Below are positions 5,192 through 57,620 of a stretch of 64,000 nt of DNA, in pieces. Below the pieces are notes generated by a model. It did not search any database, was not told where the DNA came from, and worked only from the letters and a program-made list of their open reading frames with translations. The stretch is from positions 17,570 through 81,569 of the forward strand of contig SOJX01000009.1 in assembly GCA_004376375.1 (NCBI GenBank), given 5' to 3'. A program made the position numbers and the translations under genes. Position 1 is the first letter of the stretch, and each line of letters begins with the position of its first letter. Origin of the DNA: Planctomycetota bacterium. GTDB lineage: Bacteria > Planctomycetota > E44-bin39.

Positions 5192-7555
5192 ATGATGGGC
5201 GATTTATTCGTGCTTATCATTATCATCGTATTTATTGTTGGTATAGTAAAAATTATACAATTTGTACTGGCATTAAAAGAAAAAGCCAAATCTGTCTTTA
5301 CCAAATCACGACATCGTCACCGTTCAGGAATATCAATCGAATTAGGCTCTGGCAGTACACGGGCCAGATTCAGGAATAGACAAGTCAGTCGCCCAATTAA
5401 GTCCGACATGAGATGGATTGGGCTAAATGACGAAATCACTATTCGAACATACAAGATTAACGACCCGCTTACTTATGTTTCTAAATCAAAACCACCGTCC
5501 TCTCACGAATGGATTTCATATGGCGATTTTGAAGAAGATGAAGCATCGTGCATATATACTTCCCTTAAAGTGGGCAGACCTGTTTATGAACCTCCAGGTG
5601 CACTAGGATACTGGCCCAAATACGCCCAGATTTCAGCGGACCAACGGGCAAACTACCTGAGATGGCTAGCCAATGGCAGAAATGACGAACTTGAAGACAT
5701 CGGTTATGCTTTTATATTCTTCTATGGCCTTGAACGGCGTTTATTGGTTGAGAAAAAAGATTTTAGAATCATTATGGGTGAAGTTGTCAGACTGCTGGAT
5801 CGATATACCCATTCTGGTTCGTTCACCGGCTATTTGGCCAGATTTCTTACCTACGTTGCTGCTAAGTATGGACTTGACAAGATTGATGATCCGCTTTTCT
5901 GGATCATTTTTGAAAAATCTCCTGCGCGACGTACAGAAGAAGGTCTTTCGGTGGCGCTTGCATGGATGCATATACATGGTCATCCATTAAGCACAAGTTG
6001 GGCAATGGATGTTGCCCGCATGGACCCCCGGTCTCCGAGAAGCGTTGTAACAAAACGAATCCCAGGCGAATTTAAGAAACTTTTTGATATCAAGTACAAG
6101 GAAAAATATGGCAAAGGATTAGTATTAAAAGCTTCAAAGATTGAGAGGAAACTTGAATATCATCCGGCAAGTCCTTCCCTTGGGACTCTACATAGCGACT
6201 ACGACGATGAATCCGCTGTAATTCAACCTATTCGCATTCCGAATATTATGGGTATTCAAAGCCAATTTAAGGAGTTGGTAGAAATCTGGACTGAGTGTAT
6301 CGACGAGTTGAAACCTCTTGCTCGTAAAGTCGGCAAGGGGATGGATGTTGATACACGGGAAGCCTTTGAAGCCCTTCCAGATGACCTGAGAAAAGAATTG
6401 GATCACCCCGATCACGACAAATGGGAACACCTTGCTCAGGCTAACATGCGCGAGGATGGTGTGGTCTTATTGAGTGTTTCCGACTTGGCAAAGTTGAAAG
6501 AAATTGGCAAACGGGATCGATTGACCAAGAAGCAAGGTGAAAGTATTGCAGAAACAGCCGAGTACATTGGATATGTAATTGAACCTGATATTAGATTAAC
6601 TAATCGCACATATAAATGGGATGATAAAGTCTGCCTGTTGAGGCCGGATATACCTGATAAAATCCTGGATTGCCCTCGATATCTAGGTTCCGCTATAATA
6701 CTTGAATTGGGAATGGCAATTGCGGCGGCAGATGGCGTGATTGAAGATGAGGAGGTTTCACATATAGTAAGTTTTCTGGAAGGGCGGTTTATGCTGGATA
6801 CCAACGAGGAACAGAGAATAAAGGCGTTGAAAGAAGTACTGGTTGCGTCACCTCCTTCCATGAATGGTGTTGCGAGACGATTGCAGAAGGCACTGAAGCC
6901 GGATCAGCTGGAAAAGGTCGGGACATTCCTTGTTGGTGTCGCAGCTGCTGACGGTATTATTGACAAAAATGAGATAAATATACTTAAGAAAGCTTATAAG
7001 GCGTTAGGCCTAACCAATGACAAGCTGAATGAAGTTCTTGATTCCATTGTTATAGCTCCTGATGCACCTGTGGAGGTTCAGCGCGGCAGGAAACGTGACC
7101 GAAAGGGTGAGCTAATCCCTGCACGGAAGGAGAAAGAAGAATTTATAGAAGTAATATTGGATGAAAACAGGATACGTGAAATTCTTGAGGATACCAGAGA
7201 GGTATCGGATATATTGAGCGCTGTCTTCCAAGAAGAGGATTTTGGATTGCCAGAGGGGCAGGAAAATGCTGCTCAGGAACCGGCTCAATGTTTAGAACCA
7301 GCGACAGATCCTCGTTTTGAGGATCTTGATTCCAGATTCCACTCTTTCCTGTGTGAAGTACTTACGAAGGAAGAGTGGGATAGTGATGAATTCACAAATC
7401 TCGCCCGTTCTTATAATCTTATGCCTTCGGGAGCAATTGAGAAAATCAATGAATGGGCTGAGCAAAAATATGACGATCTTCTAATGGAAGAAAGCGATAA
7501 GATTTATATCAACAAGGATATTCTGCCGGAGCACGAAAATGTCAAACAAAATTAG
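5192..7555 (+). CDS. Membrane-anchored protein with two TerB-like repeats (TerB-N/TerB-C type architecture suspected)
   Basis: 787 aa. N-terminal TM helix LFVLIIIIVFIVGIVKIIQFVLAL. Two internal repeats with the TerB signature A(A)ADG-I-x-E (LGMAIAAADGVIEDEEVSHIV and LVGVAAADGIIDKNEINILKKAY). RBS GGAG 8 nt upstream. GC about 41%, lower than its flanks. Confidence 0.6.
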   Translation: MMGDLFVLIIIIVFIVGIVKIIQFVLALKEKAKSVFTKSRHRHRSGISIELGSGSTRARFRNRQVSRPIKSDMRWIGLNDEITIRTYKINDPLTYVSKSKPPSSHEWISYGDFEEDEASCIYTSLKVGRPVYEPPGALGYWPKYAQISADQRANYLRWLANGRNDELEDIGYAFIFFYGLERRLLVEKKDFRIIMGEVVRLLDRYTHSGSFTGYLARFLTYVAAKYGLDKIDDPLFWIIFEKSPARRTEEGLSVALAWMHIHGHPLSTSWAMDVARMDPRSPRSVVTKRIPGEFKKLFDIKYKEKYGKGLVLKASKIERKLEYHPASPSLGTLHSDYDDESAVIQPIRIPNIMGIQSQFKELVEIWTECIDELKPLARKVGKGMDVDTREAFEALPDDLRKELDHPDHDKWEHLAQANMREDGVVLLSVSDLAKLKEIGKRDRLTKKQGESIAETAEYIGYVIEPDIRLTNRTYKWDDKVCLLRPDIPDKILDCPRYLGSAIILELGMAIAAADGVIEDEEVSHIVSFLEGRFMLDTNEEQRIKALKEVLVASPPSMNGVARRLQKALKPDQLEKVGTFLVGVAAADGIIDKNEINILKKAYKALGLTNDKLNEVLDSIVIAPDAPVEVQRGRKRDRKGELIPARKEKEEFIEVILDENRIREILEDTREVSDILSAVFQEEDFGLPEGQENAAQEPAQCLEPATDPRFEDLDSRFHSFLCEVLTKEEWDSDEFTNLARSYNLMPSGAIEKINEWAEQKYDDLLMEESDKIYINKDILPEHENVKQN

Positions 7556-29353: not shown

Positions 29354-29602
29354 CTAAATTTCCGAGCCCGCCCCGTTACGGATAAATGAAATGATTCTTT
29401 TTACCTGTCTTATTGAAAGCCCTACTTCGCGGGCGATTTGTGCATCCGTCAGACCGCTTTGCTTTAACTGCATAATCCTCCGGTTCCTGTCTTCGTAGTA
29501 TTTCGGCTGCGTCTTCGGAACCCAGAGCATGCCTGTATGGAAATTCTGGACACGGCTCAACAAATCGGGCGGTAGAATGCTAGCGGCGTTCTTGTAACCC
29601 AT
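29354..29602 (-). CDS. Mor-family-like small transcription activator (HTH), paralog 2
   Basis: 82 aa. Central G-x-L-W/Y-V/I-P-K motif (HTGMLWVPK) and C-terminal HTH GLTDAQIAREVGLSIRQVKRII. RBS AGGAGG. Confidence 0.5.
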   Translation of the reverse strand: MGYKNAASILPPDLLSRVQNFHTGMLWVPKTQPKYYEDRNRRIMQLKQSGLTDAQIAREVGLSIRQVKRIISFIRNGAGSEI

Positions 29603-29627
29603 CGCGACCTCCTTCTATAAATTTGAC

Positions 29628-29861
29628 TCAAGTCTTTTGCGCCTGCCTGGCTTCGTGGAGTATCTGCTGAACCCTGCGAGCAGAGAGGTAAACGATTTCT
29701 GCGATTTGGGAAGGCTTCAGCCCTTGCTGGCTGAGTTTCATGATTTCCTTGTCGCGCTCCTTACCTTCAGCAGGCGGAATGTAAAGCAGGCCCACGTGGT
29801 ATTCCCGGACTCGCATTAATAATTCAGGTGGTAGAACAATTGCCGCATTTTTATAAGCCAT
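29628..29861 (-). CDS. Mor-family-like small transcription activator (HTH), paralog 1
   Basis: Start moved to MAYKNAA (aligned with the paralog MGYKNAA), with RBS GGAGG 6 nt upstream. HVGLLYIPP motif and HTH LKPSQIAEIVYLSARRVQQIL. The ORF track gives 29628..29894. Confidence 0.5.
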   Translation of the reverse strand: MAYKNAAIVLPPELLMRVREYHVGLLYIPPAEGKERDKEIMKLSQQGLKPSQIAEIVYLSARRVQQILHEARQAQKT

Positions 29862-29994
29862 AACGACCTCCTTCCAAAACAAAAGTCGAAGCATTTTTAC
29901 CGTGGAGGTCTCGTGGAATTCTCGTGTGGGTCCCGGCTTCTTTTGAAAGCGCAGGTAGTGAACGTTCTGGTCTCGATAGGTTCTCGTCGAAAAT

Positions 29995-31260: not shown

Positions 31261-31413
31261 TTAAACCTCGAGCATGTCCGCGACGAAGCGTACAACTTCG
31301 GGTCGGTCGCAGTACTCGCGCAGAAGCTCCACGACCTCGTTGACTAAATAATAGCCTTCTTCTATTCCCAACTCGTTGTTGGGTATGTACAAGGTGCCCG
31401 AAAACTCACTCAT
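31261..31413 (-). CDS. small 50-aa protein (below the ORF-track cutoff)
   Basis: Reverse-strand ORF MSEFSGTLYIPNNELGIEEGYYLVNEVVELLREYCDRPEVVRFVADMLEV. RBS AAAGGAGG 9 nt upstream. Acidic. Confidence 0.4.
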   Translation of the reverse strand: MSEFSGTLYIPNNELGIEEGYYLVNEVVELLREYCDRPEVVRFVADMLEV

Positions 31414-31725
31414 TGCCTCAACCTCCTTTGATATAACAGGTTACGCACATATGGGCATTATCCGACGACGAAGTCAAGATATTTACATCATTTGGGTTTT
31501 GGGTCGATCTAACTCGTTTTTCCGGATTTTAACGCTTAAAAACCTCCCAACGCATTCATCTTTGTCAAGTAATGCACTCGGCCTCGAAAAAACAAGCCAA
31601 AGCATTATCGATTATTCTATGCGCAGGCTATGACTCGCGAAATCCTCCGTTATTCACCGGCAAAACACTCTAACCAGTTTTGCATAAACCGGTTACGACG
31701 ATTCAAAGCGGCGTCCGTCATAATT

Positions 31726-32469
31726 TCAGTGTAGCCAAGAAGTTATGCTTATGTCGGGCCAGCGCAAACAAAGGTGTTGGCTTTTCGGCAGGTACGACAT
31801 AACGGGCACACGAAAACGGCTTCGACGTAACTGTTCCATATGCATACATTTACGCCTCTCCGACCCCATGGGTTTTGGCGCGGCGGTCGGGCCGTGCGCA
31901 TAACCGCCGTTACTGAGCTGGTGCGTTTCGAGCATCCCTATCCCGCTTTCGAGCTCGCTCTTGTAGCCTCCCGTATGGAGGGCCATCTCGGAAAGGAACC
32001 ACGAGCCGATTGAAAAACCCCAGTTGTCGAAATCGTTCCCGCCGCCGCCGCGGTCGGTGATGTGTGCGGCCACGTAATCGGCAGCGTCTTTCAAAGCACC
32101 GGACTTGGGATCGTCGCCGGCCGCGAGCATGGCGAGCCCGCAATAACTCGCCGATACAATCGGTCCCGCCGGCGGCGGATATCCGCTGTTCTTCCAGTTG
32201 CTGCGGATGTAATCCAGTCCTTTGCTCGATGCCCCGGACCAGCTCGCGGGCTTGTTGGGTGAATTGGAGATTTTCCCGTTTATAGTCCCCGGTCCGGTAC
32301 CGGTGCCGGTCCCGGTTCCCGAGCCTGTTCCTCCACCGCCGCCACCGCCGGAACGGGAAGATTTATGCCCGTCAGAGCAGGACGGGATTAACGTCAAACC
32401 GATAGCCGCTATCAATATTATTATGAAGTGTGTTATGCTTACGGCGTTGAATGAATGTTTGTGTTTCAT
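31726..32469 (-). CDS. secreted lipoprotein with Gly/Thr-rich linker; possibly 3'-truncated
   Basis: Start set at MKHKHSF, with RBS GGGAG upstream. Signal peptide plus LIPSC. Linker (G)7TGSGTGTGTGTGPGT. Repeat-like GGYAHG / NWGFS segments. The last 45 or so codons look non-protein-like and run into a lower-GC region. Confidence 0.45.
   Translation of the reverse strand: MKHKHSFNAVSITHFIIILIAAIGLTLIPSCSDGHKSSRSGGGGGGGTGSGTGTGTGTGPGTINGKISNSPNKPASWSGASSKGLDYIRSNWKNSGYPPPAGPIVSASYCGLAMLAAGDDPKSGALKDAADYVAAHITDRGGGGNDFDNWGFSIGSWFLSEMALHTGGYKSELESGIGMLETHQLSNGGYAHGPTAAPKPMGSERRKCMHMEQLRRSRFRVPVMSYLPKSQHLCLRWPDISITSWLH
32285..32345. repeat. GGN/ACN-type hexanucleotide low-complexity coding repeat (Gly-Thr linker)
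   Basis: ccggtaccggtgccggtcccggttcc... encodes the TGSGTGTGTG linker. Confidence 0.7.
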
Positions 32470-32529
32470 TCCCTTTTCTCCCTTCCGTGCTTGCGTATGT
32501 GTCATGGACAGCCTCGTTACACTCTGATG

Positions 32530-35028
32530 TTATTTCTTCTTTGACAGGACCACCGTGAGCGCGACAACCTTCGTAGTTGCAACGCAGTCCTCGTTAGAAA
32601 GAATGACAAACCAGTCATCGTTGGATGGGATAATGAAATCCCCCGACTTTGAAGATATGTTATGAGAGATTTCATGGGCATCGAACGAGGCGCCGCCGGC
32701 GTAGGCCATGAAGTTTGCGGAATCGCAGATGAAGAAATCCGCGTGCGCGTTACTGCGGACGTAGCTGAAAGTTTTGGCGTGCAGTGGCTCCGGAACGCTG
32801 TCGACGGGGCAGGTTCCGTGCATCATTTCCGACGGCACCTCAACCGCGAAATCGAGTTTGTAGTTGTCGAGAGGACTTGGCAGCTGACCCGCCGCGCCCG
32901 GCTTCGGCACGGGTATGCTCCCGCTGAGGGTCGCCGAGCGGGATACCGTCCCCTTGTCTTCGACTTTTACCGATTCGGTCGTGCCGTCTCCAACGATGCT
33001 GTTGATTTTGATTCCGAAACTTTTCGCTGATGCAAGCGCAACGTTGCATTTGCCGGAAGTGTCGGTATAGCCGATTCCGGCGTACTGCGGCCTCGGGTGC
33101 CCCGCGCTGGAAATCTTCAGCTGCACGCCGTCGACCGGGTTGCCGTCCGCGTCCGTGACGGTCATGTCGAGCCTTTTGACGCTGGTGTATCTTTCGGTGA
33201 TGGTCTCCGAATACCCGTCGCCGCGCCACGACAGGACGGCCGAGATCGGCATCCACTCCCAGCCCCAGTCGTCGTAAGCGCGGGGGTCGTCAATCATAAA
33301 ACCGTTCCACTCCGACTTCGAGGGCTCCCACTGGACCCATCTTCTATCGTAGAACTCGTTCCACTTGTGGTTGTTCGCGTGACTGCCCGTCGCGGCCCCC
33401 GGGATAAGCGCGGTTCTTGTCGCCGCGGCCGTGACAATTGCATGCGGCGTGCAGGAGCCGCTGTGCGTGTGATGTATCGAAAGAGGCTGAGTGGGATCAG
33501 GTTTGCCGCCGCCGCCAACGAAACTGATGTTTATCCATTCGGCAACCGCGGCGATAGCGTCGTTATCGTCACTGTTTTTCTTGCACTTCCATACGCTTTG
33601 ACATCCGATAAGCACGTCTTTCAGCGGGAAATAAGTAACCCTGTCCGGCGGATCGCAGAGATTGAAGAAAAAGTCGCGCCAGAAATAGCCGTCGATATAC
33701 TGCGGCTCTTCCACCATGACGACGGGATGCACAATGTAGTAGTAGTATATATCTCTCGGAAGCTCTACCTGTTTGCGGACTCCCCCCTCTTCGACCCAGT
33801 ACCTTGTGGTGGAGTAGTAATTCGGATCGCTGCCCGAAGTTCCGTAATCGATAACATCGACATAATCAAGCACGTCATCGGCCGAGTAGATATGCTCGGC
33901 ATTCTCCCTGATAATCGCGAGGTCCATTACGGCGAGGTCTTCATGCGCGATGTGGGCCACGCAGAAAACTATCTCGTCGAGGTATGGGTCGGACGCGTCC
34001 AGTATCAGCCGGGCGCACGAATCCTGAATGCTGCTGCCCAGGAATGAGAAATTCTCCGCCAGCTCGTGTGCAAGCCATTTTGGCGCTTTCTCAACCGCGT
34101 CTTTCGCAAGCGAAGTCAGGTTCTCCTGCGGGCGCAGGACCTCGAGGGCCGAACTGCTGCTGTTGAAACGGACGCAGACGCGCTCGCCGGCCGGTATCCT
34201 TACTTCCAGGCTTACCGAGTCCAGTTTCTCCCACGCGGGGTCGGTTACGGTTATCGAAAACTCCTCGCCCGCGGTCTTTTGCGGCGAGCTTGAATCCTCG
34301 ACCCGGACCGCGAAATCGAAAATACCGGCCGTGCCGGGCGTACCGGAGATTTCGCCGGTCGACGGGCTGAGGCTGAGGCCGTCGGGAAGCGAGCCGCTAA
34401 GGATCGACCATGCATAAGGAGTCGTACCTCCTGCCGCACTTAGCGTTCCGCTGTACGCGACTCCAAGTACGGCGTCCGGGAGCGATTCGGTCTCGAGCGT
34501 CAGCGCGCTTCCGGGCTCCTCAATAATTATGGAAAACTCCTTCGTCGCCTCCTGCAACGGCGCACTGCCGTCAGTAACTTTTACGGTGAAATCGAAACTA
34601 CCCGCTGCGGTGGGGGTACCTGAAATTCTTCCTGTCGATGGTGTAAGGTTAAGACCGCTCGGCAGAAAGCCGCTTGAGATGGACCATGTGAAGGGAGAAG
34701 TACCCCCTGCCGCAGTGAGAATTCTGCTGTATGGAATTCCAACCGTACCGCCCCAGAGCGAATCAGTCGCTATCCAGAGCGGATTCGCACCTGTTCCGGT
34801 TCCGGATCCTGTGCCGCTGCCCGTTCCTGTGCCTGTTCCCGTGCCGGTGCCTGTTCCCGTTCCTGTTCCTGTTCCCGTGCCGGGGCCCGTCCCTGTGCCA
34901 GGCCCGGTTCCCGTACCGGGTGGGTTCTGGCTGCTGCCTGATTTCTTGTTACTGCCGCACCCCGGCAGGCAAAATGTCAAGCCGAATACGGTTACGATTA
35001 CGATGAGAATAAAATAGACCCGTTTCAT
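32530..35028 (-). CDS. transglutaminase-like lipoprotein with two putative Ig-like repeats and a long (GT)n linker
   Basis: 832 aa. Signal peptide with lipobox LPGC. Linker of about 45 residues of GTG/PGT. Two repeats P(F/Y)(T/A)WSI(S/L)SG(F/S)LP(S/D)GL(N/S)L(T/S)PSTG(R/E)ISGTP. Transglutaminase core GSCTPHAIVTAAATRTALIPGAATGSHANNHKWNEFYDRRW (Cys...His...Asp). ATGA overlap with the STAS gene. Confidence 0.7.
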   Translation of the reverse strand: MKRVYFILIVIVTVFGLTFCLPGCGSNKKSGSSQNPPGTGTGPGTGTGPGTGTGTGTGTGTGTGTGTGTGSGTGSGTGTGANPLWIATDSLWGGTVGIPYSRILTAAGGTSPFTWSISSGFLPSGLNLTPSTGRISGTPTAAGSFDFTVKVTDGSAPLQEATKEFSIIIEEPGSALTLETESLPDAVLGVAYSGTLSAAGGTTPYAWSILSGSLPDGLSLSPSTGEISGTPGTAGIFDFAVRVEDSSSPQKTAGEEFSITVTDPAWEKLDSVSLEVRIPAGERVCVRFNSSSSALEVLRPQENLTSLAKDAVEKAPKWLAHELAENFSFLGSSIQDSCARLILDASDPYLDEIVFCVAHIAHEDLAVMDLAIIRENAEHIYSADDVLDYVDVIDYGTSGSDPNYYSTTRYWVEEGGVRKQVELPRDIYYYYIVHPVVMVEEPQYIDGYFWRDFFFNLCDPPDRVTYFPLKDVLIGCQSVWKCKKNSDDNDAIAAVAEWINISFVGGGGKPDPTQPLSIHHTHSGSCTPHAIVTAAATRTALIPGAATGSHANNHKWNEFYDRRWVQWEPSKSEWNGFMIDDPRAYDDWGWEWMPISAVLSWRGDGYSETITERYTSVKRLDMTVTDADGNPVDGVQLKISSAGHPRPQYAGIGYTDTSGKCNVALASAKSFGIKINSIVGDGTTESVKVEDKGTVSRSATLSGSIPVPKPGAAGQLPSPLDNYKLDFAVEVPSEMMHGTCPVDSVPEPLHAKTFSYVRSNAHADFFICDSANFMAYAGGASFDAHEISHNISSKSGDFIIPSNDDWFVILSNEDCVATTKVVALTVVLSKKK
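34786..34925. repeat. long hexanucleotide low-complexity coding repeat encoding the (GT)n linker
   Basis: About 23 tandem degenerate copies of ccnGTn; the opposite frame reads PVPVPVPV. Confidence 0.75.
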
Positions 35029-35387
35029 GCTGTATTCTCCTTTTGTGATTCTGGACGACGATAACTATGTGCATTTTCGGAAAATTTGCCCAGCGCAGCA
35101 GAGGCGAGCCACTCGACGCCGAGGCTCCGGACAGGTGGAAAGATATCGACGCTCAGGTTTCCGTTTTGACACTTAACCCAGTCGAGAACCGTAACGCCGA
35201 TAGAGTCAATCGATGTTATTTTACGAAGGTCGAGCATGATTTCCCGACTCTGGAATTCTACCGCGGACTGCAGAAGCTCCAGAATCCTCCTGGCAGTATG
35301 GCCGGTGAACTTGCCTGCAACCTGCAACCGTAACTTTCCGTTTTCGTAACAGAATAGGGTAAATGCGACTTTCATGATAATTTCCAT
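35025..35387 (-). CDS. STAS-domain protein (anti-sigma-factor antagonist, SpoIIAA-like)
   Basis: 120 aa. LDLRKITSIDSIGVTVLDWVKC fits the STAS signature. Directly downstream of a sigma-54 promoter. Confidence 0.6.
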   Translation of the reverse strand: MEIIMKVAFTLFCYENGKLRLQVAGKFTGHTARRILELLQSAVEFQSREIMLDLRKITSIDSIGVTVLDWVKCQNGNLSVDIFPPVRSLGVEWLASAALGKFSENAHSYRRPESQKENTA

Positions 35388-35427
35388 ATTTTAGAGCAAA
35401 AATTATTGGAATCGCTACTATTGATTT

Positions 35428-35443
35428 AGCAAGATTTGAGCCA
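35428..35443 (-). promoter_or_regulatory. sigma-54 (-24/-12) promoter TGGCTC-N5-TTGCT driving the STAS / transglutaminase-lipoprotein operon
   Basis: Minus-strand read TGGCTCAAATCTTGCT against the consensus TGGCACGnnnnTTGCW: two mismatches, exact GG-GC spacing. About 40 nt upstream of the STAS start codon. Confidence 0.55.
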
Positions 35444-35540
35444 AATGGTTTTTAGATGGCCGAGATTCGTATAACTAGTGTGTGTTCAATGTGTTAGGTG
35501 GTGTGCAAGTGATAGTTCATGGAGATTGCCAGGAAGGGGA

Positions 35541-35588
35541 GTGTCAACTGTATTGACACATTACGGTCTGTGTCAATGTAGTTTACAC
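35541..35588. promoter_or_regulatory. two tandem palindromic candidate enhancer (UAS) sites GTGTCAA-N5-TTGACAC and GTGTCAA-N5-TTTACAC
   Basis: Perfect 7-bp IR at 35541-35559 and a one-mismatch copy at 35570-35588. Centres 29 bp apart. 100-150 bp upstream of the sigma-54 promoter and directly beside the sigma-54 activator gene. Confidence 0.45.
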
Positions 35589-38500
35589 TATCTTGGGCGT
35601 TGGATTCCCCACTCTTTTCTCTTCTTGAAAATCTGCTGTCGGCTGACACCGAGCAGTTTTGCCAGTTGGGTTTCATTGTGATTATGCTGGTGAGCGAGAA
35701 TGAATTCTTTCATATAATTTTCAAGTGAAAGTTTACGGCTGATTATGCTTTCCGGTTCAGGCTGATGTTCCCGGCTGCTCATTACTTTCACAATGTCACC
35801 GGTAGTAATGCGGTTGCCGGCCATTACGAACGCCTGCTGGAGTATGTTTCGCAGTTGTCGCACATTGCCGGGATAATTGTAGCCGGACATTTTCGCAAGC
35901 GCCTCCGATTCAAGCGGTTTTTCAGGCACGTCCAGATCACCGGCAAGTTCATTGAGAATGTGCTTTACAAGAAGCGGGATATCTTCGCGCCGCTCGCGAA
36001 GAGGCGGCAGCTCGATGCGGACAACGTTTAATCTGTAGAAAAGATCTTCACGGAACGCGCCCTGCTCCACAAGCTTTTCGAGCGGCATGTTGGTCGAGCA
36101 CACCAGGCGGATGTCAATGGGAATCGGCATCGCGGTGCCTATCCGCCTGACCTCCCGTTCTTCGATGACGCGGAGAAGCTTAACCTGCATTCCGAGCGGC
36201 ATGGAGGCTATTTCGTCCAGGAACAGAGTACCGCCGTCCGCCGACTCAATAAGTCCTGTTTTATCGGAGCCCGCGCCCGTGAAGGCGCCTTTAACGTGCC
36301 CGAAAAGCTCGCCTTCAAGCAGCGATTCCGTCATGGCGCCGCAATTGATCGAAACGAACGGCCCTTCCTTCCGGCTGCTGTTGTAGTGGAGCGCTTTTGC
36401 GACAAGCTCCTTCCCCGTCCCCGTTTCGCCGTAGATGTAGGCGGTCAGGTCGGTATCGGTAACGGAATCGAGGAGGCTGAAGAGTTCGCGCATCGGTTTC
36501 GACTGCCCTACGATGCTGGTGTAGGCGTACCGTGTCCGCACCTCTTTCTGAAGGGAGCTAAGCCTTGTCCGCATCTTTTCCTGCTCGACGGCGTTGGAGA
36601 TAATAGGCGCGATACGCTCGGCGAGTGCTTCGACGAAATGGAGATCGGCTTCGGTGAAACTGCGGGCGAGCGACGTGGTATCGAGATAGACCACCCCCAT
36701 CGTCCGGCCTTCGCTTTTAATCGGCACGCAGAGCACCGAGCAGAGGCTGAGGTCTACCACGCTTTTCGCGTCGCGAAGCGATTCGTCCATGTTAACGTTG
36801 GCGACAAGCCTTGACTGGCCGCTATTGATGACTTCTCCAACCATGGTGTGGCTTGTCTGGTATTCGGGCGAAGTGATTTCCCTGTCGCGAATGTTACGCA
36901 CCGACAGGTGTTTGAGGCCGGCACCCTCATCGACAAGGATGATAAAACCGCGCTCGGCCTGGATAGTGTCAAGCACCATAGCGAGTGCGAGGTCAAGCAG
37001 CTTTTCAACGTCAAGCTCGGTCGCGGCGAGGCGCGCGATCATCTCGAGGAGCGCCATCTCCCGCCGCGCTACATGACTATCGTATACGCCGTGGATATCC
37101 AGGACCTGTTGATCGAGTGTAAAATCCTCTTCGGGGAACTCGGTTATTTTTTCTTTTCCAGGCGGTCCTTTCCGGAAGGGGTCAACGTCATCCAACGGGC
37201 TGAAGAACGGAGATTCCCTCAGCTGCTGCCTGTCGTACCCTTCGGGCAGCACATCGGCAATGAGTTTATAGGCATTTTCCGCTTCATTGAAATGCCCGGC
37301 CGCGAGCTCGAGATTATCCTGAGTGGAGGCGGCGAGCGCGGCGGTGAGCGCGGCCTCGAAGACGAGTGCGATGTTATCGGTCCGGTATGCGGTTTTCAGG
37401 GCCTCGGCTGCGATTTCCCGGGCCTTTCCAGCCTTGCCGATTCTCAGGCTGCATCGCGCTTTCAGGATAGTGGTTTCGATTCCGGCAGCCATGCTGAGTT
37501 TTTCATTTTCAAGCCGTGCAAGGATTTTTTGCGCTGCCGGGATTCTTCCGGTTGTTATGAGTACCCCGGCCCCGGCCAGTTCGATGCCCCACCCGACCTG
37601 TCCGGTGATTTTCAATTCCTGCGCCTGTTCTATCAGACGGCGGGCGCGTTTGATATCTCCCGTGATCATGGCGTGCCTCGCGGAGAGGGCCAGCGCTTCG
37701 CCGAGCCTTGCAGGGCTCTGCGGCCCGGCAAGCTCCCGGGATTCGGACAGGTCCCGCTCGGCGGCTTCGAAATCACCGCAGAGGAACGCGAGCGCTTCCG
37801 CCCTGAGATTCAGGACCGTTGTTTCCAGCGGCGTTATGCCGGCTTTACGGGCAATCTGAAGGGCCTCTTCGAAGTATGCGAGCGCGTCGGCGGTCCTTCC
37901 GAGTACGGTGCACACCGTTCCGAGAGAGATGGGGCAATGCCGCTTGAGAGTAGAGCTTGCTGTTTTCCCCGCCACTTCACTGGCCTGCTCGAATGAGGAA
38001 AGGGCTTCCCTTGTTCGTCCCGAGGCGAGGTGGACGTCACCTATGTTTATCATCACGGCGCCGATACTTACTTCATCACCCGAAATCTCGAAGAACCGCT
38101 TGGCCGCGGTGTAGGCGTCGAGTGCTTCGTCGTACTGCCCGAAATCCTTGAGCACGTTGCCGATATTTCCCTGGGTGTATGCAACACCCATGAGGTTGCC
38201 TCTTTTTTCATAAGCATCGAGGGCGATATAGTAATGCACAAGCGCTTTTTCCGGTTTCCCTTTTTCCAGATCGATACCGGCCAGCAGGACGTGCATGCGC
38301 TCGAAATGGTCTTTCGCGGATTTCCGCCGCAGTATCCGGTTGGCGCGCTTCACGGCATCGGCATATTTTCCGCGCCCGTAATCAGAACTTGCGAGATGAC
38401 TGTCTATGGTATTAATTTTTTCCTTGTCTTTGAGAGACTTGAAGATGTCCCTTGCCTCGGACAATAACTTTCGTGCTTTCTCAGGCTCGCCTTTGTGCCC

Positions 38501-40921
38501 CGCGACGCGCCCCAGATGAATAAGCAACTCTCCCTTCAGGGGTTTTGAGTTTTTCACCCCCGGTCTGTCCTGCGCTTCCTGAAGGAAGAGTTCGGCTTCG
38601 TCCGCTTTTCCCGACCGCAGGCGAAGAGTAGTATGAAACCACGCAACGGTGGCGGCGTACTCCGGATATTTCCACAGCTCGTCGCTTGAAGCGGCGGTAA
38701 TGCAGTCAAAGACTCTCTCGAGCCTCGCGCGGCGCCAGTAACACTTGGCCAACCAGTCAAGCGCCTCGAACCATCCTTCCGTTCGGCCGGGCAGGCGTTT
38801 CTTGAGCGCTTCGAAAAGCCGGACAGCGGACGATATCACTCCGGTCACCGCTGCATGCTTCGCCCCATCCCAGAGCAGTGGCAGCAGTTCGTCTTCACCG
38901 ACGCCGGCTTTCTCCGCGTGTATCGCGCGCTCTATGAGCTCGGTATTTTTCTTTTTCAGATAAGAATATATCTGTCCGTGCATTGCGCGGCACTGCTCAC
39001 GAGGTATAATACGCAGGACAACTTCACCCAGACGACCGCTCGCGAATGCGTAGTTACCTTCTTCATCGGCCCAGAGCAGTCCACGCGAAAGCAGATGCTT
39101 AACCGCGGCGGCGCATGCGTCGGGCGGTATCGCGGACGCTTCCTGCAGCAGGTCGAATTCGGCGGGGCGTTCGACGCATGCGAGCGCGTCAACGACGACA
39201 CGCTCATCTTCGACCAGCGATTTGATTCTGCGCTGGAGCGCTTCTTCACCTTTTGCCGGCGGTTTCAGGCCGGCAAATGCCGCGGTTGTACGCCATTTCC
39301 CCGCCTCAAAGAAAAGGAGCCCGGTCTCAAAAAGCTGCTGAACGGTCTGCTCTATGATAAGCGGGTTCCCCCCGGCCGCATCAAGCACGGTAGACAGCAC
39401 ATTCGCGGGCAATTCGGAGCCGCCCAGCATGGCGGAAAGCAGTCCTGCCGCGGCTTCCCTGGTAAGCGGAGACAGCGAAACCTGCCCGGCGATTCCCTGT
39501 GCGCTCGAGCGGTCCATATACCCGATCACGGTTTTGGCGGTTTCCACCTCGGTATTGCACGCGCACAGAACAAGCAGAGGCACGTGCTTACCTTCCTGCA
39601 ATCCGAGCCAGAGCACCCGTGCGAGATGTTCGAGAAAGGAAAGGGTGTCTTCGTCAGCATTTTCCAGGTCGTCAATCGAAATAACCAGCGGCCGCAGGGC
39701 CGCTGTTTCCATGAGCAGGAGCGCAATATCGTGCATGACTCTGCCGTGCTTTACCATATCCGGGTCCCGCTCTTCCCCGGCAAGCATGCCCAGAGTTTCC
39801 TCGAACTCATCCAGAGTTTCTTTCGGAAGTGCCTGGATAATATTGCCGATAACTTCCGCAAAGGGACCGTAAGGCCGACGGCGCGAGGCCGAGCATCTGC
39901 ATTTTATGAGCAGGTTGCCTTTCAGTTGGGCAAAGTAGCCTGCTTCGCGCAGAAGGCGGCTTTTTCCGATTCCGGTCTCACCGGTAATAAACCATAGCGA
40001 AGGTTTGCCCGGACCCTCCCTGAGTGAATCCATCAGGGCCCTGAAATGGTCCAGCTCTTCCTCTCTTCCGATAAAACCGCCGCCGAGAAGATATGCAAGC
40101 GCTGTCTCGACCGTCTCCTCTTCCAGTGAAATATCCATGGCCTGGGAGAGCGCGCGATTGACCTCGTTGGCCGTATAATATCTCAAGCCGGGCTCGCGCT
40201 CGAGGAGGCGCAGGACAATACGCTCCAGCTCGACCGGGACATCTATTTTGAATTTACGCGGCGGCTCGGGCTCCGTCGCGGCCTGCAATCTGAGCACCTC
40301 GAGAATTGAATCGTCCTCGTACGGGCGCTTGCCCGCAATGGCTTCATAAAAGACGACGCCCAGCGAATACAGATCGGAGCGCGGATCGCCGAGCTCTCCG
40401 CGGACGACTTCAGGTGCGGCATAGCCTATCGTCCCGCGCATCGAGCCCGATATCGGCGTTTCGGTAGTCGCAAGGCCGAAGTCGATCAGCCTCGCGACCC
40501 GGTTCGTATCGACTATGATGTTGCCGGGCTTGACATCGTAATGAATTATTCCGCGGGAATGTATATGCTGAAGTGCGCGAAAGACCTGAGCGAAAAGACG
40601 GGACCCGTCTGCGAAGTCGAGACCTTTGCACATCTCAACGATATTACTTCCTTCGATGTACTCGGAAGTGTAGAACCACAGGCCGGATTTCTCGTCAAGG
40701 CCGAAATCGTAAACCCGCGCGATATTCGGGTGACGGATTTTGGTGAGGGTCGAAAACTCGTGCCGCATGAGCTCGAGGTGCCGCGTGCCCGGCGTCTCGA
40801 GCAGCTTCAGCGCAAGAAGTCTTTTGTCTTCAAGCCTGTCCCTTACCAGATAAACCTTCCCCGCAGCTCCCTTGCCGAGAAGCTTTTCAACTTTATAACG
40901 GTTTGCGACAACTTTTGGCAA
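35588..40921 (-). CDS. Multidomain regulator: Ser/Thr protein kinase / STAND-type P-loop NTPase / TPR repeats / GAF / sigma-54-interaction AAA+ / Fis-type HTH
   Basis: 1777 aa. Kinase motifs GKGAAGKVY, LALKLL, HYDVKPGNI, DFGLA, GTIGYAAPE. P-loop GETGIGKSRLL. Long TPR-like region. Sigma-54 AAA+ motifs GETGTGKELVAKALH, ELFGHVKGAFTGA, GGTLFLDEI. C-terminal HTH LAKLLGVSRQQIFKKRKEWGI. Confidence 0.85.
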   Translation of the reverse strand: MPKVVANRYKVEKLLGKGAAGKVYLVRDRLEDKRLLALKLLETPGTRHLELMRHEFSTLTKIRHPNIARVYDFGLDEKSGLWFYTSEYIEGSNIVEMCKGLDFADGSRLFAQVFRALQHIHSRGIIHYDVKPGNIIVDTNRVARLIDFGLATTETPISGSMRGTIGYAAPEVVRGELGDPRSDLYSLGVVFYEAIAGKRPYEDDSILEVLRLQAATEPEPPRKFKIDVPVELERIVLRLLEREPGLRYYTANEVNRALSQAMDISLEEETVETALAYLLGGGFIGREEELDHFRALMDSLREGPGKPSLWFITGETGIGKSRLLREAGYFAQLKGNLLIKCRCSASRRRPYGPFAEVIGNIIQALPKETLDEFEETLGMLAGEERDPDMVKHGRVMHDIALLLMETAALRPLVISIDDLENADEDTLSFLEHLARVLWLGLQEGKHVPLLVLCACNTEVETAKTVIGYMDRSSAQGIAGQVSLSPLTREAAAGLLSAMLGGSELPANVLSTVLDAAGGNPLIIEQTVQQLFETGLLFFEAGKWRTTAAFAGLKPPAKGEEALQRRIKSLVEDERVVVDALACVERPAEFDLLQEASAIPPDACAAAVKHLLSRGLLWADEEGNYAFASGRLGEVVLRIIPREQCRAMHGQIYSYLKKKNTELIERAIHAEKAGVGEDELLPLLWDGAKHAAVTGVISSAVRLFEALKKRLPGRTEGWFEALDWLAKCYWRRARLERVFDCITAASSDELWKYPEYAATVAWFHTTLRLRSGKADEAELFLQEAQDRPGVKNSKPLKGELLIHLGRVAGHKGEPEKARKLLSEARDIFKSLKDKEKINTIDSHLASSDYGRGKYADAVKRANRILRRKSAKDHFERMHVLLAGIDLEKGKPEKALVHYYIALDAYEKRGNLMGVAYTQGNIGNVLKDFGQYDEALDAYTAAKRFFEISGDEVSIGAVMINIGDVHLASGRTREALSSFEQASEVAGKTASSTLKRHCPISLGTVCTVLGRTADALAYFEEALQIARKAGITPLETTVLNLRAEALAFLCGDFEAAERDLSESRELAGPQSPARLGEALALSARHAMITGDIKRARRLIEQAQELKITGQVGWGIELAGAGVLITTGRIPAAQKILARLENEKLSMAAGIETTILKARCSLRIGKAGKAREIAAEALKTAYRTDNIALVFEAALTAALAASTQDNLELAAGHFNEAENAYKLIADVLPEGYDRQQLRESPFFSPLDDVDPFRKGPPGKEKITEFPEEDFTLDQQVLDIHGVYDSHVARREMALLEMIARLAATELDVEKLLDLALAMVLDTIQAERGFIILVDEGAGLKHLSVRNIRDREITSPEYQTSHTMVGEVINSGQSRLVANVNMDESLRDAKSVVDLSLCSVLCVPIKSEGRTMGVVYLDTTSLARSFTEADLHFVEALAERIAPIISNAVEQEKMRTRLSSLQKEVRTRYAYTSIVGQSKPMRELFSLLDSVTDTDLTAYIYGETGTGKELVAKALHYNSSRKEGPFVSINCGAMTESLLEGELFGHVKGAFTGAGSDKTGLIESADGGTLFLDEIASMPLGMQVKLLRVIEEREVRRIGTAMPIPIDIRLVCSTNMPLEKLVEQGAFREDLFYRLNVVRIELPPLRERREDIPLLVKHILNELAGDLDVPEKPLESEALAKMSGYNYPGNVRQLRNILQQAFVMAGNRITTGDIVKVMSSREHQPEPESIISRKLSLENYMKEFILAHQHNHNETQLAKLLGVSRQQIFKKRKEWGIQRPR

Positions 40922-41242
40922 AGTAACCTCACAGGCTCCAAAGCAAAGTACATTCTATCATCACCAGATTCAAGCCAAAAAATTCTCGCGTACTGGGGGG
41001 GGTCTTTCTTTCCGCGTAGATGTGTTTCGGGAAAAACTATTTCTGATAACTATAAACCATGTTGTGTGATAACAAACGTAACATCCCGCCTGCATTATCG
41101 CCTTGTTACCCCGGCCATCGCAGGGGTTCTCTCTTGCGTCACCCTTGCGCACACAGGTTTCTCTGAACTGCTTCGGATTGCTTTGAACTGCATATTCGAG
41201 GAGGGTGGGTGAAAAATAAAAGGAACAGCCTGTTACAGAGCA

Positions 41243-41328
41243 CTGCATAAACAGGTTGACATCCGGCCCCACCGAACCCCGGGAAAATGGAAGGGCGTTT
41301 TTAACCGCGTGTCAACCTGTTTATGCAG
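41243..41328. repeat. perfect 19-bp inverted repeat pair (CTGCATAAACAGGTTGACA ... TGTCAACCTGTTTATGCAG) separated by 48 bp
   Basis: Seen directly, about 320-400 bp upstream of the sigma-54 activator start. Contains the GTCAAC/TGTTTAT core shared with the 35.5-kb UAS sites. Confidence 0.6.
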
Positions 41329-41457
41329 GATTCTTTAGTTGCCGTGTCTATGCGTTTTCTTTTCCCTTCGAGCCGTATCTCCCATTTTCATTTGAATTTC
41401 CCCAATCCTCGCATATAATTCATCTATAAGGAAGTAAACCTAGAAATTATCCTTACT

Positions 41458-41520
41458 ATGTCCCCGAAATACAATGTCCCCGAAATACACATGTCCCCGA
41501 AATACACCCCGGAATACACC
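41458..41520. repeat. tandem direct repeat, about 3.7 copies of a 16-17-bp unit ATGTCCCCGAAATACA(C)
   Basis: Seen directly. Sits exactly where homology between the two GT-like paralog loci ends. Confidence 0.75.
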
Positions 41521-41710
41521 GTTCTTCAAAGGTATTTCTCAATTTTTCTCATTATTTTTTTGAAATGTTTTTCGAACCGGAGATGCTCTTCGAATGTTTT
41601 ATAAGCCATTTCAGAATATTGCCCGTAATTGCTTTCGATTTTCCGTAAAGCACTTCCTGTTTCGGATGCGGTCTCGACACAAACGCCACATCCCGTTTTT
41701 TGCACAAACT
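41519..41710. repeat. about 190-bp segment roughly 93-95% identical to 46065..46260 (3' ends of paralogous genes, same orientation)
   Basis: Direct comparison of the two loci: near-identity through the last 60 or so codons, then decay to about 70%. Confidence 0.7.
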
Positions 41711-56260: not shown

Positions 56261-56411
56261 AGCCGAAATGCCGTTTCTGGCTCCAAGCCGCTTCGAATTT
56301 CCCCTGTTGAGCCGTCATAACCTCTTTTTCAGCAAGCTCATTACATACAGTCTCTGCCGATCCCGAATATTGAACAAGGTTTTACCTTCTCTTTTCGTCA
56401 ACCTGTTTCCG

Positions 56412-57620
56412 CTATTGCTCCATGAAGGCAATAATTTCTTCGATCACTCTAATCTGATCAATCGAGTTCAAGCCAATAGAACAGGGAATGCTGACAGCCT
56501 TCCGCCAGATGCTCTCGGCAATAGGGCACTGTGTCTGATTGTGCAAGTCCGCATGCGCGGGACTCAGGTGTATCGGTTGCCACAAAGGGCGCGTCTGAAT
56601 GCCCCTCTCGTTCATCCTCTTAATCATATTCCGCGGAGATTTGCCGGGCTCTTCACTTTCAAGCAAGAAGGTGTACATCCAGAAGGTGCTCCCGGCCCAA
56701 TCCGCTTCCTTCATTATGCTGATGCCGTCTACATCCCGAAAAGCTTCATCATACTTACGGGCAATCTCTCTTTTTCCCGATACGTGCTCGTTCAGGATTT
56801 CAAGTTGGGCGCATCCAATGGCGGCCGACACGTTGCTTAATCTGTAGTTGTACCCTATCTCCCTGTGAATATATTCGAGCGGGTCGTCCTTGGCCTGCGT
56901 TGTCAGGTACCCGGCCTTTTTTGCCCATGCCTCATTGTCTGTGAGTATAGCGCCACCGCCGCCACAGGTGATAATTTTATTTCCATTAAAACTCAGGCAC
57001 GCGATACCGCCGAATAACCCAACGGGTTTCTCCCTGTAGCGTGCGCCAAGGCTCTCCGATGCATCGTCAATAACAGGCAGGTTAAATCGTCCGGCCAGTT
57101 CTGCGATGCGATCATGGTCGACCGGATGCCCGAGAATATCGACCGGCATCACCGCCTTAACGGTCCGTCCCGTAGACTTGTTCACGGTCTCACCGCTTCT
57201 GTTCTCGCATTGATTCTCCAGGAAATCCCTCAGGCTGTCCGGACCCATCTGCCAGTAATCCGGCTCGGCGTCGATGAAAACCGGCCATGCGCCGACATAC
57301 CTGATAGCGTTCACGGGAGCGATAAACGTAAGGTCACTGACCAGGACTTCGTCATCAGGTCTGATGCCGGCAACGAGTAGCGCAATATGCAGAGCAGCAG
57401 TACCGTTTATAGTAGCCACGGCATACTTGCGTCCGGCGTAATCCGCAAGCATGCTTTCAAATTTATCAACATACTGGCCGACGGACGAAACCCAGCCCGT
57501 ATCGAGACATTCTTTTACATATTTCCATTCGTTACCATGGATATATGGGACGGCAAGAGGAATGAAACCTTCCGGAGATGCTCCCGGTTCCAGGTTGGAG
57601 TGATTTACGAGTTGGCCCAT
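56412..57620 (-). CDS. DegT-family PLP-dependent aminotransferase (PseC/LegC-type candidate)
   Basis: 402 aa. LSFNGNKIITCGGGGAILTDN with Lys. Typical DegT N-terminal region. Confidence 0.8.
   Translation of the reverse strand: MGQLVNHSNLEPGASPEGFIPLAVPYIHGNEWKYVKECLDTGWVSSVGQYVDKFESMLADYAGRKYAVATINGTAALHIALLVAGIRPDDEVLVSDLTFIAPVNAIRYVGAWPVFIDAEPDYWQMGPDSLRDFLENQCENRSGETVNKSTGRTVKAVMPVDILGHPVDHDRIAELAGRFNLPVIDDASESLGARYREKPVGLFGGIACLSFNGNKIITCGGGGAILTDNEAWAKKAGYLTTQAKDDPLEYIHREIGYNYRLSNVSAAIGCAQLEILNEHVSGKREIARKYDEAFRDVDGISIMKEADWAGSTFWMYTFLLESEEPGKSPRNMIKRMNERGIQTRPLWQPIHLSPAHADLHNQTQCPIAESIWRKAVSIPCSIGLNSIDQIRVIEEIIAFMEQ

Follow-up and report, generated by a model that had tools for sequence, protein, structure and literature searches.

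Do the short, similar-looking sequences around a giant sigma-54 activator gene of a Planctomycetota bacterium belong to one regulatory motif or to several unrelated elements? The locus lies in a 64-kb stretch (64,000 nt) of contig SOJX01000009.1, hereafter the window. There, the gene for a 1777-aa activator is followed on the minus strand by an operon beginning with a STAS-domain gene. A preliminary description had assigned six sequences near these genes to a single motif of about 17 nt, occurring at five sites and possibly bound by one regulator. The listed sequences probably correspond instead to three unrelated things: a pair of sigma-54 enhancer sites upstream of the STAS operon, a stand-alone hairpin upstream of the activator gene, and look-alikes. 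The earlier observation was partly confirmed, in that the sequences and two sub-features are real and the five-site family is not. Its interpretation is partly supported, for the pair of sites at 35541 and 35570 only.

Elements upstream of the STAS operon

The interval between the activator gene and the operon comprises, with the two genes flanking it, the following features.

35588-40921, minus strand: gene of the predicted cognate activator (1777 aa, TTG start), with Ser/Thr kinase, AAA_16/STAND, TPR, GAF, sigma-54 AAA+ and Fis-type helix-turn-helix (HTH) domains
35570-35588, no strand assigned: promoter-distal palindrome GTGTCAATGTAGTTTACAC of the putative upstream activating sequence (UAS), 6/7 arm pairs with one mismatch, centre at about -162 from the predicted start
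35541-35559, no strand assigned: promoter-proximal UAS palindrome GTGTCAACTGTATTGACAC, perfect 7-5-7, TGT-N11-ACA, centre at about -133 from the predicted start
35484-35496, minus strand: block TAACACATTGAAC resembling a binding site for integration host factor (IHF), between the UAS and the promoter, its TAA..C invariant in six paralog regions
35443-35428, minus strand: predicted sigma-54 -24/-12 promoter TGGCTCAAATCTTGCT, GG at 35442-35441 and GC at 35430-35429, predicted start near 35417
35025-35387, minus strand: first operon gene, encoding a STAS-domain, anti-sigma-antagonist-like protein (120 aa; Pfam STAS, NCBIfam)

The two palindromes are 19 nt long, share the frame GTGT-N11-ACAC and are separated by a 10-nt gap, which places them 29 bp apart. 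Position confirms that they lie upstream of the STAS operon, and the palindromic nature already recognised for the 35541 site is perfect. The last base of the distal palindrome is also the last base of the TAG stop codon of the activator gene. Such dyad-symmetric sites are far more frequent here than chance predicts. The sequence GTGTCAA-N5-TTGACAC finds two matches in the window at one mismatch or less (0.02 expected) and the composite GTGT-N11-ACAC-N10-GTGT-N11-ACAC finds one (0.00 expected). The palindrome pattern has no match elsewhere in the 64-kb window at up to two mismatches and a single one, in coding DNA, at three. Measured from the -24 GG, the palindrome centres are 108 and 137 bp upstream.

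The predicted promoter lies about 100-145 nt downstream of the palindromes on the minus strand. It agrees with TGGCAC-N5-TTGCW at 10 of the 11 specified positions (TGGCTC-N5-TTGCT). Its -24 GG and -12 GC are exactly 10 nt apart on the strand of the STAS gene, and it is the only intergenic match to TGGC-N8-TGCW in the window. It is separated by 41 nt from the annotated start of the STAS gene and by 53 nt from the ATG at 35375, which is probably the true start because alignments with the paralogs begin at residue 5. Downstream of the IHF-like block, a GTT at 35475-35473 (minus strand) is also invariant in the six paralog regions. The sequence of this TAA..C/GTT block suggests a site for IHF, and its copy in locus L005 is an exact fit to YAANNNNTTGATW.

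Judged by sequence, the pair and the -24/-12 promoter would together form the classical UAS layout of enhancer-binding proteins, an ordinary and well-understood kind of element. In this arrangement of enhancer, IHF-like site and -24/-12 promoter, the adjacent activator is the obvious predicted binder: the pair is very probably bound by its Fis-type HTH. That HTH had been one of the two candidates put forward to bind every site, a role that is supported for this pair and for none of the other sites.

The 1777-aa activator

The activator matches the Pfam profiles Sigma54_activat (E = 2e-69), Pkinase, AAA_16 and GAF. Its AAA+ domain carries a GAFTGA motif at residues 1545-1550 and intact Walker A and Walker B motifs. 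The C-terminus reaches 22.7 bits with HTH_8 (Fis family), for a Pfam cut-off of 22. The protein thus combines the GAFTGA-containing AAA+ domain and the C-terminal HTH expected of a cognate sigma-54 activator. NifA is its best NCBIfam model, with a score (353 bits) under the cut-off of 529.

The gene itself has a proximal sigma-70-like promoter, TTGAAT-N17-TACTTT, at 40945-40973 on the minus strand, which is kept among the paralogs. It belongs to the sole conserved part of their upstream regions, which consists of cTTGAATc-N17-TAcTTT/TATGTT, a GAGGT Shine-Dalgarno sequence and a TTG start (for example L001 9941-10000, L002, L003 and L089). General scans of the region for sigma-70 promoters and for terminators gave results at chance level. 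A metagenome scan with the 1777-aa protein confirmed no relatives.

Paralogous modules in related Planctomycetota

Activator relatives were analysed at eight loci (L001-L005 and L089-L091) on contigs of Planctomycetota metagenome-assembled genomes (MAGs). Full-length relatives are 48-57% identical to the window protein and often occur several to a contig. A profile search of genome contigs with the family alignment was swamped by generic bacterial enhancer-binding proteins (bEBPs) and was not used. In most of the eight loci an operon of the same orientation comes after the activator gene, and a STAS gene, 41-55% identical to that of the window, is found in all eight modules.

Intergenic regions could be aligned for the six loci where the operon directly follows the activator gene. 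Within these sequences, otherwise 46% identical, the -24 GG, the -12 TTG and the TAA..C/GTT block are invariant; the last of these precedes the -24 GG by about 30-55 nt. When the promoter block is modelled from sequence only (R1), 35426-35498 is the sole match in the window, with 44.6 bits, and even an unfiltered search brings no other below E = 0.2. The promoter and the IHF-like block recur at two further paralogous STAS operons. An independent R1 copy lies at L001 19731-19802, before the STAS operon of that contig, and is preceded by a second, about 88% identical copy of L001's own palindrome pair. A weaker R1 match in L002 is preceded by GTGTGATAAAAAGTAACAC, 10 nt and GTGTTACGTTTTATCACAC. 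This segment (L002 20003-20050) has the 19+10+19 geometry and the GTGT-N11-ACAC frame of the window pair, lies about 95 nt upstream of the paralogous promoter, and is the only occurrence of the GTGT-N11-ACAC composite among 116 loci. The architecture of enhancer and promoter is therefore conserved in relatives.

Most paralog regions also carry a pair of palindromes straight after the stop codon of the activator gene. Their sequences are locus-specific:

L001, after the activator stop: GTGTGC-N5-GCACA
L003, after the activator stop: ATGTTTC-N5-GAAACGT
L089, after the activator stop: TGTCTTG-N4-CAAGACA, present twice
L090, after the activator stop: CGTTTCC-N3-GAAAACA and TGTTACC-N3-GGTAACG

The HTH recognition helices differ among the paralogs, as do their palindromes.

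Taken as a family, the activators are proteins of 1750-1790 aa in which a Ser/Thr kinase, STAND, TPR, GAF and bEBP modules are combined, each with a STAS-containing sigma-54 operon. The paralog operons also encode signal-peptide proteins, some with CAP, PDZ or He_PIG domains. A tRNA gene or fragment is found upstream of two of the paralogous activator genes (L089 4560-4640 and L003 around 5680-5730), which hints that some modules occupy tRNA-associated insertion sites. GC-rich palindromes resembling repetitive extragenic palindromic elements (GCGCCGCTTGCGGCGC, GTAGGGGC and others) occupy intergenic positions in related MAGs (L002 15400-15700, L091 10390-10480, L090 4800-4850 and L005 5640-5720) and are absent from the window.

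Relationships among the listed sequences

The remaining sequences of the preliminary description, with the hairpin that overlaps one of them, are as follows.

41243-41261, no strand assigned: left arm CTGCATAAACAGGTTGACA of a 19-bp perfect inverted repeat, unrelated to the UAS
41310-41328, no strand assigned: right arm TGTCAACCTGTTTATGCAG, exact reverse complement of the left arm, after a 48-nt spacer
31432-31448, no strand assigned: TATAACAGGTTACGCAC, with 19 nt between its end and the start codon (ATG at 31413, minus strand) of a 50-aa open reading frame (ORF); background similarity
31683-31699, no strand assigned: CATAAACCGGTTACGAC, mostly inside the next feature
31671-31695, minus strand: small hairpin with a 9-10 bp stem and a 5-7-nt loop, 31 nt past the stop of the 259-aa gene and followed by GUGUUUUG

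All six sequences are present. Coordinates were exact for four of them and off by 7 and 2 nt for the two that had been placed at 31425 and 31681. The AAC(C/A)(T/G)GTT core said to be common to all sites is absent from both the 35541 and the 35570 sites. In the form AACMKGTT it occurs eight times in the window, for an estimated four or so expected.

Comparison at the best offset and in both orientations separates the sequences. The two palindromes agree at 16 of 19 bases, the repeat arms at 19 of 19. Either palindrome matches any other listed site at only 8-9 of 19 positions, a level equalled by 22%-57% of random pairs of 19-mers from the window. The Smith-Waterman score of the repeat arm against the palindromes (18) is below the mean best chance score (21). 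A Smith-Waterman search of each site against the whole window agrees with the pairwise comparison in leaving the palindromes unrelated to the rest. An 8-mer, GTGTCAAC, is common to the 35541 site (its first 8 nt) and to the right repeat arm preceded by G41309; it occurs twice in the window, where about two occurrences are expected. Hence only the 35541 and 35570 sites are related, the others being a separate hairpin and weak look-alikes. The link that a shared regulator was suggested to make between the activator locus and the Mor cassette is not supported by these comparisons. Nothing connects the small Mor/C-like HTH proteins (phrog_836), the other candidate regulator, to any of the sites.

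The 31432 site matches everything else at no more than 10 of 19 positions (p about 0.06 per pair) and is probably a chance resemblance, with nothing to mark it as an element. The 31683 site is less simply dismissed. It matches the repeat arm at 14 of 19 positions, and the first 14 nt from 31681 onward match it at 13 of 14 (TGCATAAAC[A/C]GGTT). An unlisted intergenic sequence at 56397-56413 (minus strand) is as similar to the arm, with the 12-mer AAACAGGTTGAC in common. A first Smith-Waterman null put the resemblance between the arm and 31683 at chance; under better nulls it appears somewhat unusual, for which reason the term chance was downgraded to unproven for this site. Among 500 real intergenic 19-mers of the window, 1.0% have two intergenic relatives as good. 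In 150 segment-wise shuffles, intergenic hits number 0.013 per window and two never occur together. The comparison was made post hoc, the motif and the threshold being chosen afterwards. These similarities provide at most a weak hint, drawn from sequence, that 31683 and the repeat arm may be related, independently of the enhancer.

The hairpin at 31671-31695 has a folding z of -2.5 alone (5 of 200 shuffles as good) and of -1.65 in an 81-nt context. It might act as a weak terminator for the STAS operon. The sequence at 56397-56413 (minus strand), AGCGGAAACAGGTTGACG, begins 2 nt past the stop of a DegT-like gene; its local hairpin is not significant (z = -0.5).

The inverted repeat at 41243-41328

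The inverted repeat is the only one of hairpin type in the 64 kb, and its RNA folds with z = -5.7 and -6.1 on the two strands. It precedes the activator gene's proximal promoter by 270-350 bp and follows a glycosyltransferase-like gene at a distance of about 200 nt. As a best guess, which is less likely than not to be right, it may act as an RNA hairpin that ends or insulates the transcript of the latter gene.

Several more specific identities were considered and rejected. An intrinsic terminator fits poorly with a 48-nt loop and a minus-strand U-run that begins about 22 nt past the stem, and the terminator scan detected only a trivial sub-hairpin at this place. From the sequence as read, an integron attC site would lack its RYYYAAC/GTTRRRY cores, and an invertible promoter switch would have a segment of 48 bp and no recombinase nearby. 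A tRNA-like structure found no Rfam tRNA match in the window, no dedicated tRNA scan having been run. Rfam gave nothing over the whole window at the gathering threshold and only meaningless microRNA and lncRNA matches in 40900-41560 at E <= 10. In metagenome contigs the 19-mer of the arm has three single matches with no similarity in their flanks, taken as chance, and in viral contigs single matches only. No counterpart of the inverted repeat was found upstream of the eight paralog genes.

Alternative interpretations

Several observations weigh against reading the pair as an enhancer and the rest as unrelated to it. The gene for sigma-54 itself, rpoN, was not found in the 64-kb window. Locus L005 has no clear palindrome pair and site 1 of L003 is doubtful. 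The right arm of the inverted repeat contains GTGTCAAC, a perfect UAS half-site, and the repeat arm has two intergenic look-alikes (31681 and 56397; empirical p about 0.01). Finally, the two palindromes are mutually complementary (86%) and could pair into a hairpin that closes the activator mRNA, for which a terminator role, perhaps alongside protein binding, is possible. The half-site, completed by G41309, speaks for a single motif of about 17 nt at five or six sites, through which the small-HTH cassette, the STAS operon and the activator gene would come under one regulator (Fis-type HTH or Mor-like), as do the intergenic location of every listed site and the TGCATAAAC[A/C]GGTT shared by the repeat arm and 31683. 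However, the half-site word is as frequent as expected (2 for about 2), the AACMKGTT core is missing from both palindromes, and the resemblance of these to the other sites, at 8-9/19 and with a Smith-Waterman score of 18 for a chance mean of 21, is that of background. Moreover, the palindrome pattern has no other match at up to two mismatches and no second promoter of the conserved type was found in the window, while the paralog modules carry nothing comparable upstream of the activator gene. A single motif of this sort is extremely improbable. It is also quite improbable that 35541-35588 is primarily an RNA hairpin terminating or stabilising the activator mRNA and not a protein-binding enhancer. 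The palindromes do start at the stop codon, and the minus-strand RNA of the two 86%-complementary 19-mers folds at -28 kcal/mol (z = -3.9), but no U-tract follows the hairpin, the sequence running on as UCCCCUUCC. The 7-5-7 symmetry within each 19-mer would be superfluous in a terminator. L001 and L002 possess such a pair before a second promoter that is not at the 3' end of any activator gene. The distance from pair to promoter is kept in the regions that start at the stop codon: five of the six paralog regions have their -24 element some 140-150 nt past it, and L005 has it at about 200 nt.

With the enhancer reading retained for the pair, the repeat arm and its look-alikes could represent a second intergenic element family, TGCATAAAC[A/C]GGTT(G)AC, at 41244, 41327 (minus), 31681 and 56397 (minus), acting as a protein site or 3'-end element independent of the palindromes. 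Both non-self hits with a Smith-Waterman score of at least 23 are intergenic, each is found shortly past the stop codon of a gene on the minus strand, and the shuffles (0.013 hits per window, two in 0/150) and the real 19-mers (only 1.0% doing equally well) argue in its favour. However, the motif and threshold were post hoc, the flanks cannot be aligned, words such as GCATAAACAG are about 3-fold over-represented window-wide, mostly in coding DNA, and 143 kb of paralog loci are not enriched in the motif. The sites are inconsistently oriented with respect to transcription, the 56397 hairpin has a z of only -0.5, and none of the six paralog modules has such flanking repeats, all of which make the family rather unlikely. 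The inverted repeat might otherwise be the remnant of a mobile or recombination element, either the terminal inverted repeats of a miniature inverted-repeat transposable element or the boundary of a duplicating cassette of activator and operon. Its 19/19 arms suggest a recent origin, activator-operon modules have multiplied in related genomes, and a 14-mer recurs, with one mismatch, in the intergenic regions on either side of the module (about 0.06 expected, by estimate). This origin is nevertheless very unlikely, since no target-site duplication is visible, no further copies were found in the window or in the metagenome and viral collections, no transposase or recombinase is present among the annotated ORFs of the window, and flanking repeats of this kind are found in 0/6 paralog modules. 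The more novel readings, improbable on the whole, are two and independent of each other. In one, the repeat-arm family (31681-31698 and 56397-56413), whose copies at 41244-41327 and 31681 bracket the 9.6-kb module of activator and STAS operon, would mark the sites of some further regulator or the boundaries of a duplicating sigma-54 plug-in cassette. In the other, each giant kinase-STAND-bEBP paralog appears to have a private enhancer, located in most modules at its own stop codon. If true, such private enhancers would define a family of self-contained one-protein signalling modules in Planctomycetota.

Proposed mechanism and comparison with known systems

The elements and their spacing, the intact bEBP motifs and the conservation among paralogs allow a mechanism to be outlined, in which binding, the participation of IHF and activation are predicted steps. 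Dimers of the Fis-type HTH of the 1777-aa NifA-like bEBP would bind the two GTGT-N11-ACAC palindromes. The bEBP would then assemble an active AAA+ ring, controlled by its kinase, STAND, TPR and GAF sensor modules. A DNA bend at the IHF-like block (35496-35484) would permit contact with the closed sigma-54 holoenzyme on 35443-35428 (minus strand), where ATP hydrolysis would open the promoter and switch on the operon encoding the STAS, 832-aa and 259-aa proteins. A feedback loop from the kinase to the STAS protein is conceivable.

The closest known parallels are NifA and NtrC. NifA recognises a TGT-N10-ACA UAS that precedes -24/-12 promoters, frequently with an intervening IHF site. The window protein resembles NifA in its C-terminal module of GAF, AAA+ (GAFTGA) and Fis-type HTH and in its best NCBIfam model. 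The DNA is similar in its palindromes with TGT...ACA ends, more than 100 bp upstream of a GG-N10-GC promoter and with an IHF-like block between. It differs in having TGT-N11-ACA rather than TGT-N10-ACA spacing at both sites, and in having two sites at a distance of 29 bp, of which the distal one extends over the stop codon of the activator's own gene. The protein scores below the NifA cut-off and bears a 1290-aa N-terminal extension with kinase, STAND ATPase and TPR domains, and its predicted target is an operon for STAS and secreted proteins, not nif. At glnAp2, NtrC uses tandem dyad enhancer sites at about -108 and -140 from the sigma-54 promoter. The window pair, likewise two dyad sites, is separated by about three helical turns and stands roughly as far from its promoter; it would nucleate an oligomeric AAA+ activator. 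However, the centre-to-centre spacing is 29 bp versus 32 bp, the half-site sequence is another one, and the activator has neither a receiver domain nor a partner histidine kinase.

A third parallel is the PrsR/PEP-CTERM system, whose PEP-CTERM genes are preceded by an activator-binding "motif 1" and, about 63 nt further on, a sigma-54 "motif 2" (Haft et al. 2006, PMC1569441). The two-part cis architecture is the same and was found by comparative genomics alone (PMC1569441). Both cases involve exported-protein targets near polysaccharide loci and an NtrC-like activator with a Fis-type HTH. PrsR, however, is a response regulator with one motif over many promoters per genome, whereas here each paralog appears to have private palindromes and one or two promoters, and no PEP-CTERM domain was detected in the window operon proteins.

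For annotation, the analysis supplies the predicted regulatory logic of one operon, namely an enhancer pair, an IHF-like block, a sigma-54 promoter and an adjacent giant activator, and takes the small-HTH cassette and the region upstream of the activator gene out of a spurious regulon. The family of giant kinase-STAND-bEBP proteins is little studied. Its paralogs offer ready pairs of HTH and operator in which the divergence of specificity of Fis-type HTHs may be followed, as well as the hypothesis of a fusion between a Hanks-type kinase and a bEBP whose first target gene encodes a STAS protein.

Operon proteins and neighbouring genes

Two genes follow the STAS gene in the operon:

32530-35028, minus strand: second gene, 832-aa protein with He_PIG, Big_1 and transglutaminase-like domains
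31726-32505, minus strand: third gene, 259-aa lipoprotein-like protein with a lipobox-like N-terminus and a Gly/Thr-rich linker

The N-terminal 25-35 aa of the 832-aa protein are like those of proteins from the paralog operons. Degenerate periodic repeats of 6-18 nt at 34790-34930 and 32270-32355 code for Gly/Thr/Pro-rich linkers in the 832-aa and 259-aa proteins, respectively.

The context of the activator gene is described here as read on the minus strand. Downstream of 31413 there are small ORFs, two of which encode HTH proteins matching phrog_836, annotated as late transcriptional activator. These ORFs of 82 and 88 aa (29354-29894, minus strand) match it through the C-terminal HTH only (E = 8.6e-9 and 1.7e-4). 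They have no Pfam Mor match at E <= 0.01 and their NCBIfam match to CD3324_fam is below cut-off, so that the label Mor cassette is only loosely justified. Farther along, a defence island at 269-24000 includes a type I restriction R subunit, a TerB_N/TerB/TerB_C protein, a BrxC/D-like ATPase, a DEAD helicase, a PD-(D/E)XK nuclease, a 1852-aa ORF and DruA (Druantia-like).

Upstream of the activator gene, from 41526 onward, lies a polysaccharide cluster. Single chance-like matches were all that viral contigs yielded for the 16-nt unit of a tandem repeat found at its edge. This repeat, at 41458-41520, comprises three full copies and one degenerate copy of ATGTCCCCGAAATACA(C) with a period of 16-17 nt. 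It is located directly past the stop (41526) of the 432-aa glycosyltransferase-like gene and its unit reads TGT-N9-ACA on the minus strand.

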